A program made the position numbers and the translations under genes. The notes under the pieces were generated by a model. It was not told the DNA's origin. It did no database searches and was given only the letters and a program-made list of their open reading frames with translations. Shown here piece by piece: positions 4,057-29,639 of a stretch of 64,000 bases of DNA. This DNA comes from an uncultured Candidatus Saccharibacteria bacterium. Lineage in GTDB: Bacteria; Patescibacteriota; Doudnabacteria; UBA920. The DNA is taken from contig CAYTCJ010000001.1 of the NCBI GenBank assembly GCA_964436545.1, forward strand, positions 14,392 through 78,391, given 5' to 3'. How positions within the stretch are numbered: position 1 is the stretch's first letter; each line of letters opens with the position of its first letter.

Positions 4057-4372
4057 ATTTATGAGTTCCAGAGTGCCTAATTTAGCGGGATATAGTAATA
4101 GACCTGCATATGAAATACAAAATACGGGCGCAGAGTACGATAGGTCAGGAGCAGATTTATCTGTGGAGTTAAACAGAGACGATTTAATAAGCCAAATACA
4201 AAGTGCTATAGAAGGAGTAGCTTCAATATCGGACAGTAATATTCAAAGTTTGGAAAATCAATTAAAAAATTTATTAAGAGAATTGCAAGATAATTCTTCT
4301 GGTCGTTCTTTAGAGACTATAAGTAAAGAGGTAGATAGTATTTTACAACAGTTAGGAGTTAATGATTATTAA
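4025..4372 (+). CDS. hypothetical protein (possible true start at Met 4061)
   Basis: ORF only. Confidence 0.3.
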   Translation: MKFRVYFQGYKFMSSRVPNLAGYSNRPAYEIQNTGAEYDRSGADLSVELNRDDLISQIQSAIEGVASISDSNIQSLENQLKNLLRELQDNSSGRSLETISKEVDSILQQLGVNDY

Positions 4373-5289: not shown

Positions 5290-6253
5290 CACTCACGCCC
5301 ATATTAATTTTAAAGCCTTTGAGGCTGATGCTACGGAAGTGGTTCAGCGCGCTTTTAATAATGGAGTAAGTCTAATCTTGGTGGGGACGCAAATAGATAC
5401 TTCTAAAGAAGCAGTTGAGCTTGCTGAGAAATTTAACTCCCCCGCCTTCGGTACCCCCTCTTTGGCCAAAGAGGGGGGAGGGGGAGTTTATGCTGTCGTG
5501 GGTCTTCATCCGGTTCATACTTACAGCCAGCATTTAGACGAAGAAGAAACCAGCTTTCAAACCCGCGAAGAAATTTTTGATTATGAAGCTTATTATAAAC
5601 TTGCCAGTCATCCGCTGGTGGTGGGTATAGGGGAGTGCGGATTGGACTATTACAGAATTAAGAATGATGAATTAGGAATTATGAATGTGGAAGAAATTAA
5701 GAAAAAGCAAAAACTGACTTTTATTCAGCAAATTAAATTAGCAAAAGAATTAGACAAGGCATTAGTGATTCATTGTCGGCCCAGTGTCGGCACGGCAGAT
5801 GCTTATGAAGATATCCTTCAAATTCTGGACCAAGAATTTGAAAAATTCCAAATTCCAAATCCCAAATTCCAAATGCGGTTTGAAATTCATTCTTTTACCG
5901 GTTCACCGGAGATTGCTATGGAGTTTGTAAAACGTGGCGCTTATGTAGGTTTAAATGGTATAATTACCTTTGGAGATCGAAAGACAAAAAATCTGACGAC
6001 ATCCTCCATAGCCTTGGCGAAGGAGGGTGATAAGACCGGTAATATGAAAAAAGTGGTGGAAACTGTGCCTTTGGAGCGAATAGTTTTGGAAACCGATTCG
6101 CCTTACCTAACTCCAGTCCCGCATCGAGGAAAACGCAATGAGCCTTTATTTGTTAAACACGTAGCAGAAAAAGTGGCGGAAATTAAAGGTGTGTCTTTAG
6201 AAGAAGTGGCAAAAACCACAACTCAAAACGCTAAATTGTTATTTAATATTTAA
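5279..6253 (+). CDS. tatD: TatD family metal-dependent hydrolase (DNase) with in-frame palindromic and microsatellite insertions
   Basis: MLIDTHAHINF start, TatD His/Asp/Glu pattern; insertions at 5440-5490, 5850-5885, 6005-6030. Confidence 0.85.
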   Translation: MLIDTHAHINFKAFEADATEVVQRAFNNGVSLILVGTQIDTSKEAVELAEKFNSPAFGTPSLAKEGGGGVYAVVGLHPVHTYSQHLDEEETSFQTREEIFDYEAYYKLASHPLVVGIGECGLDYYRIKNDELGIMNVEEIKKKQKLTFIQQIKLAKELDKALVIHCRPSVGTADAYEDILQILDQEFEKFQIPNPKFQMRFEIHSFTGSPEIAMEFVKRGAYVGLNGIITFGDRKTKNLTTSSIALAKEGDKTGNMKKVVETVPLERIVLETDSPYLTPVPHRGKRNEPLFVKHVAEKVAEIKGVSLEEVAKTTTQNAKLLFNI

Positions 6254-6257
6254 AGTT

Positions 6258-9200
6258 ATGACTAAGTATAATCCAAAAAAAACCGAAGCGAAATGGCAAA
6301 AATTTTGGCAGACCCGAAAAATTTTTGTTGGCAAAGATTTTTCCAAAAAACCTAAAAAATTTGTCTTAGTGGAATTTCCATATCCTTCCGGTGCGGGTTT
6401 GCATATGGGCCATTTGCGTCCCTATGTGGCTGCCGATGTCTATGCTCGGTTTTGCAGAATGAAAGGTTTTGAAACTTTATTCCCCATGGGCTGGGATGCT
6501 TTTGGGCTTCCGGCAGAAAATTATGCTCTAAAAATGGGCGTGCATCCGGCCATTACCACCAAAAAGAACATTGCCAATGCTAAAAAACAAATGTTGTCTT
6601 GGGGACTTTCGTTCGATTGGAGCCGGGAAATTAATACCACAGATCCGAATTACTATAAATGGACACAGTGGTTATTTTTACAGTTCTATAAAAAGGGTTT
6701 GGCTTTTGAAGCGACCGGAGTCATTAATTGGTGTCCTTCTTGTAAAACTGGTTTGGCTAACGAAGAAGTGATAGACAACAGTTGTGAGCGTTGTGGCACT
6801 AAAGTGGAAAAGAAAGAATTAAGGCAATGGTATTTAAAAATTACTCAATACGCGGAAAAGTTATTGCAAGGTTTGGAAACTTTAAAAGCTTGGCCCGAAC
6901 CGGTAAAACTTCAACAACAGAATTGGATTGGTAAAAAAACCGGAATAAATATTACTTACGATATTGTTTCGGATAAGGCAGATTCAAATTATGTTTTACT
7001 TCATGGGTTTAACGGAAGCAGTGAGGGGATATTTTTTCCGTGGTTAAAACAAGAATTAAACAAACGAACAGTAAAAGTAGTTTGTCCTAATTTACCTAAC
7101 GCCAATCATCCCACAGAAGATGAACAAGTAGCATATGTGTTAAAAACTTGCGAATTTAATTCTCGCACTATTTTATTTGGCCATAGTTTAGGCGCGGTGG
7201 TGGCTTTAAAGGTGTTAGAAAAATTAAACACTAAAATTGCCGGAGTGGTTTTAGCCGGGGGTTTTACCAATCCAAATTTTAAAGATAATTCAAGACCGTT
7301 TGCAAAAACTTTTAATTGGCAGTTTGATTTTAATAAAATTAAATCCAATGTGGATTTTGTAAAGATTCTTAGCGATCCCACAGATTATGCCATTCCCACA
7401 GAGCAAGGAAAGAATCTGCAAATGAACTTGGCAGGCGCTCTTTTGGAAATCCCCGGTGAAAAACCGCATTACACTTCGGAAGTGGAACCTAATATTTTAA
7501 ACGCACTTCTACCTAACATTACTTGCTTTACCACTCGGCCAGACACCAACTTTGGAGCGACCTTTGTGGTAATCGGACCGGAACATCCGTATTTAAAACA
7601 TAGGCAAATTTTAAATATTGGCACCAAAGCTTGGCAAGCCATTGAAGCTTATAAGCAACAAGCTTTAAGCCAAGGCGATGAAGTTAGAACTGCGGAAAAC
7701 CGTAAAAAGACCGGAGTGTTTACGGGTTTGTATTGTTTGAACCCGCTCACTAATTTTAAAATGCCGTTATATGTGGCAGATTATGTGCTGGGGAATGTGG
7801 GTACCGGGGCGGTGGTGGGTGTGCCTGGGCATGACAAGCGGGATTTTGAATTTGCCCAAGTTTTTAATTTGGAAATTAAACGCGTGGTACAAAAGCATGA
7901 ACAAGACAATTTACCCATAACCACCTTAGAGCAAGTTCAGGAAGAAACAGGGGTTATGGTAAATTCCGAATTTTTAAACGGGTTAGATATCCATACCGCC
8001 ACAGAAAAAATTATGGATTATATGGAAAGTCAAGGAATGGGTAAACGAGTGGTAAATTATAAATTACGGGATTGGGTATTTAGTCGCCAAAGGTATTGGG
8101 GTGAACCTATTCCTTTGGTGCACTGTGAAGATTGCGGGGTAGTGCCGGTACCGGAAAAAGATTTGCCGGTTAAACTGCCCAAAGTAAAAAAATATGAACC
8201 TACCGGCACCGGGGAATCACCCTTGGCAGATATTTTAAATTGGGTTAAAACCAAATGCCCACAGTGTAAAAAGTTGGCTTATCGGGAAACTAACACTATG
8301 CCTCAGTGGGCAGGGAGTAGTTGGTATTGGTTAAGATTTACCGATGCCAAAAATTCCAAAGCTTTTGCATCTATCAAAAACCAAAAATACTGGACTCCGG
8401 TAGATGTATATTTTGGCGGAATGGAGCATACGACTTTGCATTTGCTTTACAGCCGTTTTTGGAATCAATTTTTGTTTGATAATGGCTTGGTAGTTTCCAG
8501 CGAACCCTATAGTTTGCGCAAACCTCACGGCATTGTTTTGGGTCCGGATGGCGAAAAAATGTCCAAGTCTCGGGGTAATGTGGTAGATCCGCAAGCGATA
8601 ATTAAACTTTATGGCGCAGATACCTTAAGAATGTATGAATTATTTTTAGGTCCGCATGAGGCCATGGTGGCGTTTAATGATAAAGGCGCCGTAGGGGTAA
8701 AACGGTTTTTAGATAGAATGTGGGATTGGGTATTAAATAATATCAAATATCAAAAATCAAATATCAAAGATTCGGAAAAAGTGGAGCAGGAATTGCATAA
8801 ATTAATAAAGAAAATCACTGAAGATATTGAAAATTTCCGCTTTAATACTTGTATCTCCGCTTTTATGGAGTTTTATAACCAAATTAAAGAAGAGAAGGTC
8901 TCTTGGGAAGTAATAAAAACTTTTTTAATTTTATTGTATCCTTTTGCCCCGCACGTAGCCGAAGAGTTGAATCAGCTTGCCAGCTCGTCAGCTAATCAGC
9001 GAATCCTCCGTCGCCATGGCTATGGAGGACAAGTCAGAAAGTCAGCGAATCAAAAAATTATTAAGTCACTCCAGTTGGCCAAGTGGCCGGAGTTTGACAG
9101 TACGAAAATTGTTCAGAAAGAAGCGGAAATTGTAATTCAAATTAATGGAAAAGTGAAAGGTAAAATTCAAGTGGGGTTTGATTCAGCCGAAGAGGCGGTT

Positions 9201-13732: not shown

Positions 13733-14749
13733 ATGGATACACAAATCAACCCACCTGCTAACCTGCAGTTTAAGGCATTAGACCCAATTGCTCCCGGCGC
13801 GCCTTTTGGTTATGTTGCCAGTCCGTCCTTTGATGCTTCGTTGCCTGTAAATTCGGCTGTAAGTAGTAGCCAGACTTTACCTCTGCATTCGGGAGTAGAT
13901 TCGCCGGAAGCTTTAAAAAGCGACAAGGTTTCCTATGAAGATGCGAGCATTCAAGAAATTGATATCACTAAAATCGTTCCCAATCCGTTCCAGCCCAGAA
14001 AAACTTTTGAGCCCACTGCGCTACAAGAATTAGCCAATTCCATAAAAGAACACGGAGTCATTCAGCCTTTGGTGGTTACAAAAACCTTGAATGGTTATGA
14101 ATTGGTCGTGGGGGAAAGACGCTTTCGGGCTAGCCAACTTGCGGGACTTACTGCAGTGCCGGCTATTATTAAAGAGCAGATGGTAGATCAAACCAAATTG
14201 GAAGTGGCGTTAATAGAAAATATCCAAAGGCAGGAATTAAACCCCATAGAAGAAGCTCAGGCCTATGACCGGTTAATGAAGACTTTTAATTTGACTCAAG
14301 AAGCGGTAGCTAAAAAGGTGGGGAAAAGTCGTCCGGCTGTGGCAAATACCGTGCGGTTACTTAATTTACCGGCAGAAGTGCAAAGAGCGGTAATTGATGG
14401 CAGATTAACCGAAGGTCATGCGCGGGCGCTACTCGGGCTGAATGATCCGGAAAAAATTCTTTTGCTGTATAAAACCGTCATAGAAAAAAAATGGAATGTG
14501 CGGGAAGTGGAAGACAAAGTGCGGGATTTAACTCAGAAAAAACAAGTGGATGCAGTGGCGCCCGATACCAAACTTTTAGCCATGGAAAGCGAATTGCGCA
14601 TAAAACTGGGCACGCAAGTAAAAATTTTGAAACAGGGGAGAGGGGGAAAAATTACCATAGATTTTTATAGCGAAGAAGAATTGAACGAATTAATTCATAA
14701 AATGGCGCAAGCTCAAAATGGTATGGAAGGCGGATATTTGACGGTTTAA
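13733..14749 (+). CDS. parB: ParB/Spo0J family partition protein with ~90-aa N-terminal extension
   Basis: ParB N-domain IQPLVV...GERRFRA, HTH region. Confidence 0.8.
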   Translation: MDTQINPPANLQFKALDPIAPGAPFGYVASPSFDASLPVNSAVSSSQTLPLHSGVDSPEALKSDKVSYEDASIQEIDITKIVPNPFQPRKTFEPTALQELANSIKEHGVIQPLVVTKTLNGYELVVGERRFRASQLAGLTAVPAIIKEQMVDQTKLEVALIENIQRQELNPIEEAQAYDRLMKTFNLTQEAVAKKVGKSRPAVANTVRLLNLPAEVQRAVIDGRLTEGHARALLGLNDPEKILLLYKTVIEKKWNVREVEDKVRDLTQKKQVDAVAPDTKLLAMESELRIKLGTQVKILKQGRGGKITIDFYSEEELNELIHKMAQAQNGMEGGYLTV

Positions 14750-14876
14750 TGCTTGACCCCGTTAAAAGTCAGTCCCGACGAGTCGGGACTGCTGGCGAGA
14801 TAGCTCGCCAGACTTCTAACAGGGTTGACCCCGTTAAATCCGCCAAAGGCGGAACCGCACAGCGGTTATTTAACTG

Positions 14877-14905
14877 GGTTGACAACTTTTTTAAAAGGTT
14901 TATAC
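14877..14905 (+). promoter_or_regulatory. sigma70-like promoter (TTGACA-16nt-TATACT) firing into the non-coding region
   Basis: hexamers read in sequence. Confidence 0.3.
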
Positions 14906-15699
14906 TAATTATAGATACAGCAATGAATACCTTAAATTTAACTAATTTTCCTTCCGTCCGCCCAAGTCTCGTGAAGACTTTTATTTGGCATGCGCGGGGT
15001 TGGAATATGAGGTAGAATACAGAAAATCTCATAAACCTAAGCCAAAACCCCGCAAATAGGGGTTTTATTAATTTGTCATTCGGAACTTGTTTCAGAATCT
15101 AAAGCACATTAAAAATCAAAGACATCTTCCCATAATCTGCTTTCAACTGATTTTTTTCACAATTTTGAGCGAAAAACCTGAAGAGGAATGAAAGTGTAGC
15201 CAACGGCTACAGTGAATTCCGATGAAGTTTTTGCAGCCAAAATTTGGAAAAAAGGCTTGAAACTGAGATTATGGGAAGATGTCTAATAGCTATTGCTCGC
15301 AGAAATTCATCTTTTCTCTGTCATCCCGACCCGACTTCGCTAAAGCTTCGTCGGGCAAGCCGATTTTAGTAAATTTAGATGAGTGGTTTGCCCACCGTAG
15401 CCTTGGCGAAGGTGGGAGGGATCCCCCCTCTTTTCCAAAGAGGGGGTAGGGGGAGTTAAATGAAAAGGATTAATTTCCGCGAGCAATCGCAACAGTATGA
15501 GGTAGTCAAGCAATCTTACCGGATTGTTTGAGTGATAGCGTAAAGTTTGTTGAAGATATATTCCGCAATTATAGGAAAAAAAACTTCAACAGATTGCTAT
15601 CATAGGAAGGCACCGAACAACCTTCTATTCTACCTCATCCAATTTGGCGGTCCCTGCAAAGGGCAAAGAGAAAGTTGGCCACTTGTGGGCTAATAATTA

Positions 15700-16240
15700 T
15701 CTTTGGAGTTGAGCTTTTAGCTCCTCCCGCCTAAAAAGATGGCGGTATTACCGCCCTGACTCGTGTCTGTCGCACGAGCAGTAAGTCCTGCCGTAAAGGT
15801 GGGATGAAAAGAAGCGCGACGACAGCGCGCAAATAAGGAGGTGCTAAAAATGCACACCGAACTTCTCCCGGCGGCGCCCCCGCTCCGACCGGCACCGTCC
15901 ACCCTGCTCGTCCCGCCAATTCCCTCACCCGTCCCGATTCGTTTGCTCCGACGGGAGGAGAAGGAAGAGGCTCACGCCAGAGAGTGGTATGAGCTGAGGT
16001 CGTAGTGTGGGGCTTTGACAAGGTAAACCTCGCCATTGGCGGGGTTAAAAAGGCCAAATTATAGAGCCTTCCTTGTCACATTGTAGTTTTTTTTGCGAGA
16101 CGGTCAACAGCTGTTCCGTTTCGCACCCACGCCCGCAAGGGCCGTACTTGTAGAGAATCGTTTCATATTTTCATCTTCGATTCCTACAGTGCGGTCCTTG
16201 CGGGCACTGTTTCTTAATTTTTTTTCCGCCCCTTAGTAGG
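15700..16240 (+). ncRNA. GC-rich non-coding island; candidate large structured RNA of unknown class (strand uncertain)
   Basis: high GC in an AT-rich genome, no credible ORF, multiple GNRA-capped hairpins (gcccgcaagggc, ccttgcgggc), upstream promoter. Confidence 0.25.
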
Positions 16241-16428
16241 TGGTTTTTTTATTTATAAAAAATGATTATTGTCTTCGATCGTTTATGTCCTGATAGCTTT
16301 AAACTAAAAAAACGACTTAAGTCGTTGGTTAAGCATTTCGTTGGTCGGACTGCCGGGAATTCCTGCCTGCCGGCAGGCAGGGAACCCGGTCTATATGCAC
16401 CTTCACCCCGTTAAATATAATTTGTTTT

Positions 16429-16502
16429 TGGTCGGGATGCTGGGAATCGAACCCAGACTACATCCACCCCATGGACGCGTACTACCACTATACTACATCC
16501 CG
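16429..16502 (-). tRNA. tRNA-Pro (anticodon GGG), 74 nt, encoded CCA
   Basis: acceptor CGGGATG/CATCCCG, D-loop AGTGGTA, anticodon loop AUGGGGU, T-loop TTCGATT. Confidence 0.75.
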
Positions 16503-16659
16503 AATTAAAACAAATATTCAACGGGGCAAGTGAATGCGCCTGTCCGCCTACTGGCGGATACTACCGGTATATTTATCCCGTAGTCAGTTTACTGTACTAT
16601 GGGACTACAGTCAGTTATTGCAATGAATTATATAGAATTATCAGTTTTTGTCAAAGTTA

Positions 16660-17379
16660 TTACGTTTTTCCCAAAAAGACTTTTTCTAAAATATCGCTTT
16701 GAATAATGTGTTGGCCGGAATCGGTTTTTATTACTTGACCTTGAGCCAATACATAAGCTCTATCTACCATTGCCAGTAAAGATTTTAAATTGTGTTCTAC
16801 CACCACCACGGCTGTTTGGTGCCTGTGGTTGATTTCTTGAATTTTGGCAAATACTTCTTTTACCATTTTGGGCGATAAGCCCAAACTGGGTTCGTCTAAC
16901 AATAAAATTTTTGGCTCTGTCATTAGCCCTCGGGCAATGGCCAGCATTTGCTGTTGTCCGCCGGACAACTCACCGCTTTTGGCATGCCGTTTGGCTTTTA
17001 GCATGGGAAAAATTTCCAAAAGTTCCGCTATTCGGCGGTTAATTTCCGCAGGGGGGTTAACGGTGTAGCCACCAATCGCCAAGTTTTCCTCTACGGTTAA
17101 ATATTTAAACACTCTTCGGCCCTGCGGAACAAACGAAATACCTAAACTTACCATTTCATGCGTAAGGGGCTTAATGGATTTTTCGTGCCACAAAATTTGT
17201 CCGCTATCTATAGGTACTAAACCAAACATGGCTTTAAGGATGGTAGATTTACCCGCGCCATTCGGGCCCATAAGCGCCACAATTTCGCCTTCGTCAATGG
17301 CAATATTCACATTATTAAGTGCTTTGACTCCGCCGTAGTGAACGGATACATTTTTTAGTTGTAATAATATCTCTTGCAT
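16660..17379 (-). CDS. livF: Branched-chain amino acid ABC transporter ATP-binding protein (LivF-like)
   Basis: Walker A GPNGAGKST, LSGGQQQ signature. Confidence 0.8.
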   Translation of the reverse strand: MQEILLQLKNVSVHYGGVKALNNVNIAIDEGEIVALMGPNGAGKSTILKAMFGLVPIDSGQILWHEKSIKPLTHEMVSLGISFVPQGRRVFKYLTVEENLAIGGYTVNPPAEINRRIAELLEIFPMLKAKRHAKSGELSGGQQQMLAIARGLMTEPKILLLDEPSLGLSPKMVKEVFAKIQEINHRHQTAVVVVEHNLKSLLAMVDRAYVLAQGQVIKTDSGQHIIQSDILEKVFLGKT

Positions 17380-23481: not shown

Positions 23482-23502
23482 AAATGCAAATCATTTGCAT
23501 TT
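23482..23502. promoter_or_regulatory. perfect 21-nt palindrome AAATGCAAATCATTTGCATTT; candidate Fur-family (Zur-like) operator in the promoter of the surface-protein/ZIP operon
   Basis: 7-1-7 inverted repeat architecture; second copy at 24705-24723. Confidence 0.5.
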
Positions 23503-23523: not shown

Positions 23524-24111
23524 TCAATGGGACGACAGTTTTGTAAAAGTTAAGCACCTAATCCCATTTAGCCAACTCAAGGTGGTTTGGTGTTGGAAAG
23601 TAAAGTGGGCGACAGTGCCGAGGTTAATAATTTCTCGGGGTTGGTAGTATTGTTTAAAAAAATATTTTTCCGGGCACTTGTCTTGGTTTAAAAACCATTG
23701 CGACAGTTTGGTTAGAGGCATTAAGTCCACAATTAGCAGTTGGCCCAAGGGTTTTAAGACTCGGTAAGCTTCGGTTAAAATTAATTCCGGATTGGGGTAG
23801 TGGTGGCCGGAAAAGACGCAATCAAAAGTGTGCTCGGCAAAAGGTAAGTGTTCGGCATTGGCTACTGTAAACTGAGCCCAAGGATTTTGGTGTTTGGCTC
23901 GGTTAATGGCAGTGGGGGAAAGGTCTATGCCATAGCCTGTTAGGCCGGGGCAAAATTTCTTTAAGATTCTTAATTCATTGCCATTTCCGCAAGAAATATC
24001 TAAAAATTCAGGATTTGGAGGCAAGGTAAAAAGCTTAAAAAATTTTTTTTCTTCGGAAAAGTTTAACCAATTAGAAAGTTTTTTAAGCATATTTGTTAAA
24101 AGTTGTGGCAA
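23524..24111 (-). CDS. class I SAM-dependent methyltransferase
   Basis: motif I LDISCGNG, motif post-I/II pattern. Confidence 0.65.
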   Translation of the reverse strand: MPQLLTNMLKKLSNWLNFSEEKKFFKLFTLPPNPEFLDISCGNGNELRILKKFCPGLTGYGIDLSPTAINRAKHQNPWAQFTVANAEHLPFAEHTFDCVFSGHHYPNPELILTEAYRVLKPLGQLLIVDLMPLTKLSQWFLNQDKCPEKYFFKQYYQPREIINLGTVAHFTFQHQTTLSWLNGIRCLTFTKLSSH

Positions 24112-24153
24112 GGGGAGAGGTGGCTAGTTCCTCCCGCTTGCCTAAAAAAGGTT

Positions 24154-24690
24154 TTAGTGGTCGTGCCCGCCCCCAAAGGGGAGGGCTCGGGTTGCGCCGT
24201 GGGTGAGAAGCTCGGCCAGAAAAGCGGAGATCCCGTGGCCGAAAGCCACTTTTTTAAGCGGGCCCCAAATCCGCCTTTCAAAAAAACCTTTCTTTTGAAT
24301 GATTGCTACTTTATATGCTCGGCTGTCCGAGCAAATATAATAGCCTATCCTGTCCACCTTTTGTCCTGCCCAAGCCCCAGGCAGGACACAAAACACCGCG
24401 CTTTGGGTCTGCTGGTTCTTCCAGTCAGACCAAGATCCAGCGCCCCACACTACCTTCTGGTCGTGCCAGAGAGGCGGGGGGTAGTTTCTCCGTATTTGGT
24501 CATATGTTCCGAGCAGGGGGCCCGGGTACACGACCACGGCCTGAAACCCCGTGGGAAGGTTTTTTAGGAGGTCTTCCAATCCTCCTTCGTGTTGTGGCAC
24601 GCCACGGCGCGAAAAGCCGTGGTCGTGCCCATCTTGCCCCAGGGCGCACCATGGGGCGAACAAAAGCGCCAAAAACAATAGTAACAGCAT
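24154..24690 (-). CDS. GC-rich gene for a secreted protein with His motifs (HDH near N-terminus, GGGHDH at C-terminus); possibly metal-binding, possibly foreign
   Basis: signal peptide; starts right after the second palindromic box; GC far above local average; region also contains palindromic elements, so the coding call is tentative. Confidence 0.35.
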   Translation of the reverse strand: MLLLLFLALLFAPWCALGQDGHDHGFSRRGVPQHEGGLEDLLKNLPTGFQAVVVYPGPLLGTYDQIRRNYPPPLWHDQKVVWGAGSWSDWKNQQTQSAVFCVLPGAWAGQKVDRIGYYICSDSRAYKVAIIQKKGFFERRIWGPLKKVAFGHGISAFLAELLTHGATRALPFGGGHDH

Positions 24691-24704
24691 CGCTTACATA
24701 TCTT

Positions 24705-24723
24705 AATGCAAATCATTTGCATT
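24705..24723. promoter_or_regulatory. second copy of palindrome AATGCAAATCATTTGCATT in the divergent promoter between the His-motif gene and the Fur-family regulator
   Basis: perfect 19-nt inverted repeat. Confidence 0.5.
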
Positions 24724-24839: not shown

Positions 24840-25265
24840 ATGCAAACAGTGTGCAATATCCACAAGGAAAAAATTTCTAAGTCCCTAAAAGCGGGTAAAT
24901 TAAAAGTAACCCCCATAAGGGTTCGGTTGTTAGATATTTTAGAGCATGCCCACAAGCCCCTAAGGGTTAAGGACATTTGTCAAAAAATAAAATCCGACAT
25001 TGTTACGGTTTATCGGAATTTGGAAAATTTGGTGGCGTTGGGTTTGGTGAAAAGAATTTTTTTAGATCAAAAAGAAGCCTATTTTGAATTAGCCAATCAA
25101 GCTCACCACCACCACGCAATTTGTCAGCTGTGTGGTTTGGTTGTAGATGTAAAAATTGCTCACCATAACCAATTGGAAAAAACCGCTTTAAAAACTTCCG
25201 GGTTTGCCAATATTAGTAGTCATAGTTTGGAATTTTTTGGAATTTGTAAAAAGTGTCAAAAGTAA
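24840..25265 (+). CDS. Fur family transcriptional regulator (Zur/Fur-like)
   Basis: winged-helix N-terminus, HHHH and two CxxC pairs in the C-terminal half. Confidence 0.8.
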   Translation: MQTVCNIHKEKISKSLKAGKLKVTPIRVRLLDILEHAHKPLRVKDICQKIKSDIVTVYRNLENLVALGLVKRIFLDQKEAYFELANQAHHHHAICQLCGLVVDVKIAHHNQLEKTALKTSGFANISSHSLEFFGICKKCQK

Positions 25266-29546: not shown

Positions 29547-29639
29547 TGTCATTCTGAACTCGTTTCAGAATCTATCTTGTTAATTTATAAAATAGATTCC
29601 GGACAATTTTAATAGCAAAATAAAATTTCCGGAATGACA
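29547..29639. mobile_element. MITE-like element, family A (TIR TGTCATTC(C/T)GAA ... TTCCGGAATGACA), in rpsL leader
   Basis: related copies at 30951-31069, 34472-34531, partial 15074-15098. Confidence 0.5.

Follow-up and report, generated by a model that had tools for sequence, protein, structure and literature searches.

Ribosome-dependent transcription attenuation through leader peptides is known from trpL, ilvL, leuL and hisL, and dual-function, highly structured RNAs with a small open reading frame (ORF) are represented by RNAIII/hld of Staphylococcus aureus and by SgrS/SgrT. Conserved flanks around swapped centres characterize integron cassettes, polymorphic toxin/immunity modules and leader-plus-hypervariable-core peptide precursors, and in the Flavobacteriia rpsU (bS21) is a Shine-Dalgarno (SD)-led exception in SD-poor bacteria, translated by ribosomes with a free anti-SD. 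Here we analyze a locus that can be compared with each of these systems, the interval 14750-16660 between parB (13733-14749, + strand) and livF (16660-17379, - strand) in a stretch of 64,000 nucleotides from contig CAYTCJ010000001.1, referred to below as the window. Homologues of its ParB are named Candidatus Doudnabacteria or Patescibacteria, which identifies the host as a bacterium of the Candidate Phyla Radiation (CPR) with about 39% GC; an exact-sequence look-up of the window ParB returned no record. A preliminary description had presented the interval as a gene-free region with a candidate large structured RNA. We find that these 1.9 kb are not one large RNA gene; they appear to form a composite, lineage-specific locus kept by one Candidatus Doudnabacteria subclade. 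Our literature search did not turn up any account of a comparable locus from CPR bacteria.

Related loci, designated by L numbers, were gathered through homologues of ParB and LivF. A tRNA-Pro gene follows parB in all of them, at a distance of 8-16 nt in four genomes and of 0.7-2.5 kb in the others. The long gap is present in the window and in L004, L006, L008, L009/L062, L010, L011, L012, L013, L015, L020, L065 and L067, while L022/L058 alone fill the space between parB and tRNA-Pro with ordinary genes. Every other long gap follows one architecture in sequences that are mostly unalignable, i.e., a consensus promoter, a leader of 150-175 nt with an intrinsic terminator, hairpins, one or two small ORFs led by strong SDs, a long hairpin terminator and the tRNA-Pro promoter. 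ParB identity to the relatives that share this order is approximately 63-83%, and a hidden Markov model of the leader (nhmmer) matched only loci with the long gap. The interval is not gene-free, because the comparison reveals in it what all related loci have, a translated-type leader that contains an attenuator and a small ORF behind an SD; what holds of the earlier statement is that no ORF in 14750-16660 has a protein relative.

The locus begins with a sigma-70-type promoter on the + strand, TTGACA-16-TATACT (14879-14906; 11 of 12 matches), which had been noted before with coordinates 2 nt off and is found at the same place in 12 related loci. Downstream lies a leader ORF of 30 codons (MNTLNLTNFPSVRPSLVKTFIWHARGWNMR, 14923-15015, + strand) with an ATG start and no SD, like host genes in general. 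An ATG-started ORF of 27-33 codons is present in 13 of 13 leaders (the 12 relatives and the window), with a mean nucleotide identity of 46%, gaps that stay in frame and the peptide pattern ..L-I-x-V-R-P-V-F-x-K-A-x-I-W-x-x-R-G... By our own estimate an open frame of 27 codons at about 35% GC arises by chance with a probability of about 0.14 per lineage, so its retention in all lineages argues against a chance ORF. The peptide has no NCBIfam match and no library model matches the leader.

Folding and covariation predict an attenuator on the + strand at 14953-15072. Segment 1 (UCCGUCCGCCC, 14953-14963) contains the V-R-P codons with CCGCCC and can pair with segment 2 (GCGCGGGGUU, 14992-15002), which contains the A-R-G codons; a small hairpin (14964-14980) follows segment 1, and an intrinsic terminator at 15044-15066 is followed by a U-run. 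Upon removal of the terminator 3' arm from the folding, the 5' arm pairs with segment 2, i.e., with the last leader codons. For 10 of the 13 leaders the best upstream partner of the terminator 5' arm is found 0-30 nt 5' of the leader stop (z -2 to -4.4), and the competing strands covary, being GCGGGG/CCCCGC in most leaders, GGGCUA/UAGCCC in L010, GAGGC/GCCUC in L013 and GGGGUA/UACCCC in L015. RNAalifold on the raw MAFFT alignment of the leaders was uninformative, as the terminators were misaligned, and folding was done per sequence. Taken at the level of sequence, the leader is likely to be a ribosome-dependent attenuator with the classical 1:2 / 2:3 / 3:4 layout; its architecture and covariation are directly visible, and its regulation in action is predicted.

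The likeness to trpL, ilvL, leuL and hisL extends to the promoter-proximal short ORF, the four-segment logic, the intrinsic terminator, the antiterminator overlapping the end of the ORF and the covarying strands. In contrast to these leaders, the peptide sequence itself is conserved (VRPVFxKAxIW..RG), which brings it nearer to arrest peptides, a run of a single amino acid is missing, the cargo consists of hypervariable micro-ORFs instead of a biosynthetic operon, and a DnaA-box-like site abuts the -35 element in most relatives. Such sites (TGTGGAWAA/TTATCCACA, at least 8 of 9 matches) lie 0-8 nt 5' of the -35 in 9 of 13 loci, among them L006 (7399-7407), L009 (8061-8069), L011 (~7832-7840), L013 (3618-3626) and L062 (5938-5946); in the window the site is lost and units resembling miniature inverted-repeat transposable elements (MITEs) abut the -35. 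Separately, we observed that a 28-nt sequence just 3' of the attenuator terminator (15074-15101) is repeated with 93% identity at 29547-29574, about 14.5 kb away.

The second part of the locus is a GC-rich island at 15650-16255. In 200-nt windows its GC content peaks at 0.575-0.62, with 0.62 attained in 15700-16070, and in 150-nt windows it reaches 0.67, the maximum of all 64 kb (mean 0.39), in agreement with the GC-rich island of the preliminary description. The stacked hairpins noted there are real as well: the minimum free energy (MFE) of 15690-16260 deviates from that of shuffled sequences with z -8.5 on the + strand and z -6.2 on the - strand, and the interval contains 10 terminator-like sites against 2.8±1.6 expected. 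The island opens on the + strand with an array of 6-7 short GC-rich hairpins (15649-15849; z -5.0) that ends in the SD UAAGGAGGUG at 15834-15843. This SD together with 7 nt and an AUG (15834-15852) is the only AGGAGGT-then-start-codon site in the 64 kb, and it leads an ORF of 51 codons (MHTELLPAAPPLRPAPSTLLVPPIPSPVPIRLLRREEKEEAHAREWYELRS, 15850-16005) whose folding (z +0.7) rules out that the ORF body is one long hairpin. Further downstream on the same strand we find a two-hairpin domain (16016-16078; z -5.3) and a 3' structured block (16095-16250; z -9.7) made of a hairpin (16095-16124), a 75-nt terminator hairpin with a T-run (16131-16205, inverted repeat I4) and a second terminator with a T-run (16226-16243). 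Two supposed GNRA hairpins, gcccgcaagggc and ccttgcgggc, turned out to be both arms of the 75-nt terminator hairpin. The excess folding stability thus resides in the flanks (z -4 to -12), whereas the ORF body does not exceed shuffled sequences in stability.

Homology searches brought no assignment for the products of the island. A protein search with the 51-aa + strand ORF gave no candidates, a 108-aa antisense ORF had 0 matches among 1.84 billion representatives, and the island ORFs showed nothing significant against Pfam, NCBIfam, PHROGs and PADLOC. At the nucleotide level, blastn of the island against phage and plasmid collections gave no match; four viral pattern scans returned solely a chance 20-mer within an unrelated coding region, and a metagenome pattern scan with the 21-mer spanning SD and start yielded three unrelated matches, which we attribute to chance.

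The sister strain L067, available as a JGI contig spanning livF to parB, allowed us to compare the interval at close range. The flanks of L067 are 94-98% identical to the window (LivF 97%, parB 94.4% at the nucleotide level), and much of the interval is conserved to the same extent: the leader is 97%, a long inverted repeat upstream of the island ~97%, the 5' hairpin array (15649-15849) ~98%, without a change in any well-defined local stem, and the 3' block (16090 to the second terminator, ~16253) ~97% identical, with changes limited to loops and tails. SD, ATG and the first ~12 codons are kept. In contrast, the + strand core (15884-16061, 178 nt), which comprises the ORF body and part of the downstream domain, has no nucleotide similarity to its 228-nt counterpart, so that the two-hairpin domain 16016-16078 is not conserved either. 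The L067 ORF has 69 codons behind the same SD/ATG and shares with the 51-codon ORF only MHTxxLP..P..LL.PP. Substitutions between the two strains avoid paired positions in the island flanks (7 of 210 paired versus 16 of 158 unpaired, p=0.009), and the conservation of these flanks equals or exceeds that of parB and livF. The proposal of a structured RNA on the + strand behind a real promoter therefore holds for the flanks, which are ~97-98% identical in L067, and fails as regards any known class of large RNA. Likewise, conservation of the block in relatives applies to the flanks in L067 and not to the core, and beyond L067 the island has no detectable sequence-level counterpart in any relative.

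The pairs L009/L062 and L006/L008 repeat this combination of conserved, structured flanks with an exchanged ORF; their 3' structured blocks contain 4 (L009/L062) and 2 (L006/L008) compensatory pairs and 0 broken pairs. A covariance model of the L009/L062 3' block (R1) has no match in the window, so the cassette types have no detectable RNA family in common. Across the cassettes, a start codon and an ORF of 20 or more codons come after 22 of 81 SD-like motifs on the + strand versus 2 of 37 on the - strand. Paired CxxC motifs (zinc ribbons) are found in eight ORFs from seven relatives, and others are basic and helical; none of the relatives' cassette ORFs matches Pfam, PHROGs or PADLOC. Among the long ORFs of ordinary genes, by comparison, even an SD 4-mer precedes 0 of 35 in the window and 7 of 127 in the relatives. 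Judging from these motifs, the cassettes appear to be coding, and unusually so for these genomes. The situation resembles that of rpsU in the Flavobacteriia in that ordinary genes have no SD (0 of 35) and one locus has perfect SD sites, and differs from it in that the cassette products are not ribosomal proteins by Pfam. As an observation in its own right, a hairpin CCCGGUYGCCCCGGGUAG directly 5' of the SD of the first cassette ORF is common to cassettes that are otherwise unalignable (L004 4975-4995, L006 7768-7786, L008 6930-6947).

Taken together, we tentatively favor the reading that an attenuator controls the production of a highly structured mRNA, or dual-function RNA, that encodes a hypervariable peptide of 51 aa, and that MITE-like insertions have expanded the locus, although we would put its likelihood somewhat short of an even chance. 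Transcription would start at the conserved promoter 14879-14906, and the first ~160 nt would encode the 30-codon leader peptide, whose last codons overlap the antiterminator strand competing with the terminator 15044-15066. Transcripts that read through would enter the GC-rich island, and the resulting mRNA would carry the 5' array of short hairpins, the perfect SD, the 51-codon ORF and, on the 3' side, hairpins with two intrinsic terminators at the end. Between near-identical strains the structured flanks stay conserved and the ORF body is replaced wholesale. As ordinary host genes lack SD sites, the SD would mark the ORF, like the small ORFs of the relatives (often zinc ribbons), as a specially initiated, fast-evolving micro-protein gene; the RNA may also act as a regulatory RNA. 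The locus appears to have been stretched from ~0.7-1.5 kb to 1.9 kb here by MITE-like and palindromic insertions (14753-14883, I1 and the I2 apex, described below) and by an inverted-repeat element with a replacement tRNA-Pro. The predicted RNA of the window resembles RNAIII/hld and SgrS/SgrT in its size of ~0.5-0.6 kb, its many hairpins, its intrinsic terminator, its single SD-led ORF of a few dozen codons and the better conservation of the structured non-coding parts relative to the ORF. In contrast to these RNAs, to which it has no sequence or Rfam relation, its ORF body is replaced between strains and the locus lies behind an attenuator.

Several observations weigh against this interpretation. 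The 51-aa product is Pro-rich and of low complexity, has no homologue and does not carry the zinc-ribbon motifs of the relatives. By our own estimate, the probability that a given ATG at 60-67% GC is followed by 51 open codons by chance is ~0.2, so the ORF could be incidental to the conserved SD/ATG. The comparison of the island is based on one sister allele (L067), which yields neither a ratio of non-synonymous to synonymous substitution rates (dN/dS) nor true covariation. A separate + strand promoter for the island was not found, and the read-through that we infer would have to pass ~770 nt of hairpins (I1, I2 and the inverted repeat) between attenuator and ORF. Furthermore, the leader peptide shows no obvious run of one regulatory amino acid, and L011, L012 and L020, i.e., 3 of the 13 leaders, have no convincing antiterminator.

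Two other explanations account for part of the same evidence. The island could specify a ~600-nt non-coding or dual-function structured RNA on the + strand with functional hairpin flanks, the SD/ORF being incidental or merely ribosome-binding. The greater conservation of the flanks relative to the ORF in three strain pairs is what such an RNA would show, as are the substitutions that avoid stems, the compensatory pairs in the 3' blocks of relatives, the strong MFE z-score with the + strand more stable than the - strand, and the low-complexity ORF product without homologues. However, no Rfam family and no structure common to the different cassette types (R1 model) was found, combinations of SD, start and ORF are strand-specific and universal in the cassettes, many of them being clear zinc ribbons, and the variable core is exactly the part without unusual structure, as expected of a coding segment between structured untranslated regions. 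We regard this reading as unlikely, if still a serious contender. Only slightly less weight belongs to the idea, also unlikely in our view, that the interval is a functionless hot spot of insertion and recombination, where GC-rich foreign fragments and palindromes accumulate and decay beside a tRNA gene that attracts mobile DNA. At least five rearrangements separate the window from a strain of 94-97% identity (a 154-aa gene lost and MITE unit 1 gained, insertion of I1, a different I2 apex, the replaced core, and insertion of the tRNA element with inversion), the island is an orphan, and GC-rich foreign-looking DNA occurs at 24154-24690 too. Set against this, promoter, leader ORF, attenuator, SD-led ORF and terminal hairpin keep the same order across relatives whose ParB is ~63-83% identical, the island flanks are no less conserved than the neighboring genes, and decay would not preserve the SD/ATG and the stems.

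An arrangement of sense and antisense RNAs as in type I toxin-antitoxin systems, with a - strand RNA running from a promoter at 16107-16080 to - strand terminators at 15873-15741 and controlling the + strand ORF, appears very improbable to us. The promoter-like site has 10 of 12 matches, three terminator-like hairpins follow one another on the - strand and the SD of the small ORF is sequestered in a predicted hairpin; yet the antisense -10 is not conserved in L067, promoter-like sites are about as frequent as expected (4 versus 3.2), relatives have no antisense promoter, the peptide is Pro-rich and charged instead of a hydrophobic membrane toxin, and PADLOC and Pfam give no match. Least probable of all, and barely worth entertaining, is that the island represents a diverged form of some known class (RNase P RNA, tmRNA, GOLLD, ROOL, HEARO, OLE or a group I/II intron). 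Its case consists of short word resemblances alone, ggtaaacc and aaggccaaat in the domain 16016-16078 and gtaagtcc, in what we take to be the same order as in RNase P RNA (E. coli M1). We ran cmscan, which had been proposed as a check of the structured-RNA claim, with the 4227 families of Rfam 15 on the whole window at the gathering threshold and on both strands of 14600-16800 with relaxed filters at E<=10. The former search returned two tRNAs only, and the latter nothing like RNase P, tmRNA, SRP, GOLLD, ROOL, HEARO or introns; matches to microRNA, CopA and P31 models far below threshold were taken as chance. GOLLD, ROOL, HEARO, OLE, raiA and other ornate RNAs have no family model match in the window or in ten related loci, where Rfam found tRNA only. 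ARAGORN detected no tmRNA, and a sub-threshold tmRNA_permuted match is merely the T-arm of tRNA-Pro. RNase P RNA (RF00010/RF00011) has no covariance-model match at E<=10, and the words said to recall it have no statistical or comparative support, the domain that bears them being unalignable in L067. RNase P RNA is essential and universally conserved, and its core would be expected in close relatives; the absence of the island from all relatives other than L067 is impossible for an essential RNA. The proximity of a tRNA gene, which had been taken as a hint of GOLLD or ROOL, is accounted for by the conserved parB/tRNA-Pro synteny.

The exchange of the core between near-identical strains brings to mind the loci with swapped centres. 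As in those, close strains agree in the upstream signals, the first codons and the downstream structured element, and the body in between cannot be aligned; here, in contrast, no integrase or the like is nearby, the conserved N-terminus amounts to just ~7-12 residues and the cassettes are not found elsewhere. The gene lists within approximately ±7-10 kb contain no integrase, recombinase, reverse transcriptase, maturation enzyme or exporter. An invertible segment was rejected as the cause of the variable core, since there is no reverse-strand similarity. A target of a diversity-generating retroelement (DGR) was also rejected, as the neighborhood gene lists hold no reverse transcriptase and the cores differ in length (178 versus 228 nt) and at all positions, and so was an integron cassette array, as the genes called in ~5-10 kb around seven loci include no recombinase (judged from gene lists; attC sites were not modelled). 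It is tempting to speculate that the locus is a dedicated diversification site in which conserved structured RNA scaffolds, the attenuator and the exceptional SD surround a micro-ORF, and in which otherwise near-identical CPR strains swap or rewrite this micro-ORF as a whole. We consider this improbable; if true, the mechanism and purpose of diversification would not fit integrons, DGRs, shufflons or known polymorphic-toxin systems, and the purpose could be, e.g., interaction with a host or phage, or the use of a special ribosome pool for translation in an organism without SDs.

The tRNA gene beside the region, correctly noted before, is a functional tRNA-Pro(GGG) on the - strand (16429-16502). 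It is carried by a 129-nt element flanked by inverted repeats (16402-16530, - strand; ends CCCCGTTRAATAT; I3, D1), and alignment with intact tRNAs and with the halves in L004 shows that this element is flanked in turn by the decayed halves of an older tRNA-Pro on the same strand: the 3' half (T-arm and acceptor-CCA, interrupted by a 20-nt palindrome) at 16342-16401 and the 5' half at 16531-16580. The unit is preceded on the - strand by a promoter TTGACA-16-TATAAT (16627-16654; 12 of 12 matches) and followed by a predicted intrinsic terminator (16311-16326), and as a whole it is inverted relative to parB. L004 (6186-6390) has a 98% identical copy of the element, which there interrupts the anticodon loop of another tRNA-Pro gene that is otherwise intact, while L067 lacks the element and has a single uninterrupted tRNA-Pro. 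Read from these alignments, the element evidently split an older tRNA-Pro and supplies the replacement for the gene that it destroyed, which would make it a self-compensating insertion.

Palindromic insertions account for much of the remaining sequence. Two tandem hairpin units on the + strand (14753-14824 and 14825-14883; direct repeat D1) have ACCCCGTTAAA...TTAAC(N)GGGT ends, which also flank the tRNA-Pro element, and fold with a free energy (dG) of -67.7 (z -6.3). Unit 2 is present in L067, and unit 1 has no counterpart there, a 154-aa repeat-protein gene lying in its place. A small gene with FEAQTKAFD-type repeats is found between parB and the leader promoter in L001 (7048-7164), L004 (3736-4056) and L067 (4564-5028, - strand); it is missing in the window, and the contigs of the closest genome break inside it. 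I1 is an AT-rich hairpin of 165 nt with a perfect base (15120-15284; z -9.6) that is precisely absent from L067, where 15119 and 15285 of the window are contiguous; L004 has it with 85% identity and with compensatory arm changes, as read from the sequences. I2 (15289-15490; z -11.9) is a long stem, GCUAUUGCUCGCAGAAAUU / AAUUUCCGCGAGCAAUCGC, that encloses nested palindromes; its base is conserved in L004, L009, L062, L065 and L067, and its apical insert is different in every genome, L067 included. In the genome-collection copy of L009 a run of N (8337-8435) lies inside the I2-type hairpin, and the unmasked L062 has an ordinary palindromic insert at this position.

The CCCCTC palindrome (~15412-15452, inside I2, with a second copy at 5452-5488), the long imperfect inverted repeat at 15496-15642 and the repeated TTGACCCCGTTAAA units had been described before and are all present. 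The inverted repeat forms a three-way hairpin (z -5.8), and its outer arms ATGAGGTAG are a word that also occurs at the end of the leader ORF (I6). We also noticed a family of GGGAGGGG...CCCCTC palindromic repeats in the intergenic DNA of several Doudnabacteria genomes, CCCCTC-type repeats being located at 2200-2238, 4290-4310 and 4600-4720 in L004 and at 6510-6550 and 6780-6820 in L008. Within the 64 kb I1 is single-copy, the CCCCTC palindrome has two copies and ACCCCGTTAAA occurs 4 times versus 2.6 expected. The MITE copies of the preliminary description are thus not borne out by the word count, and the status of the ACCCCGTTAAA elements follows from hairpin architecture and from presence or absence in relatives. 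Terminal inverted repeats together with presence/absence at a conserved site are seen for I1, unit 1 and the tRNA element, and the 14753-14883 units, I1 and the nested I2 palindromes behave as small mobile palindromic elements, for which no transposase was identified. They are like MITEs and repetitive extragenic palindromes in their terminal inverted repeats, single-hairpin form, presence or absence between strains and nesting in hairpin apices; unlike MITEs and tRNA-targeting elements, the tRNA element brings along an entire tRNA-Pro gene and occupies the anticodon loop of the tRNA-Pro that it replaces.

Some observations concern the wider window. The DnaA boxes near parB led us to consider a replication origin, which was rejected because the GC skew is positive across all 64 kb and the region contains no DnaA-box cluster; the uniform skew indicates that the window lies on one replichore. 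Over the 64 kb, TTATCCACA-like 9-mers (at most 1 mismatch) number 35 versus 17.7±4.1 in shuffles and are unclustered. A second GC-rich patch at 24083-24699 (GC up to 0.65) contains the 178-aa ORF 24154-24690 on the - strand, whose product is His-rich at its ends and has an N-terminus resembling a signal peptide. The patch is bracketed by two AATGCAAATCATTTGCATT copies, palindromes resembling Fur/Zur boxes (~23482-23501 and ~24705-24723), and a ZIP transporter gene and a Fur-family gene (24840-25265) are nearby.

Altogether, the analysis removes a false lead, since the island is no divergent RNase P RNA and does not belong to the GOLLD/ROOL type, and provides a first anatomy of a recurrent, unannotated locus of Candidatus Doudnabacteria. 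For a lineage whose gene regulation is almost unexplored, it thereby describes a likely leader-peptide attenuator, whose promoter often has a DnaA box. In a genome whose ordinary genes have no SD, the SD-led genes that we see are tiny, orphan and rapidly replaced ORFs within conserved RNA structure. If translated, these ORFs would be candidates for strain-specific functions in an episymbiotic bacterium with a reduced genome, and may serve as a test case for SD-dependent initiation in SD-poor organisms.

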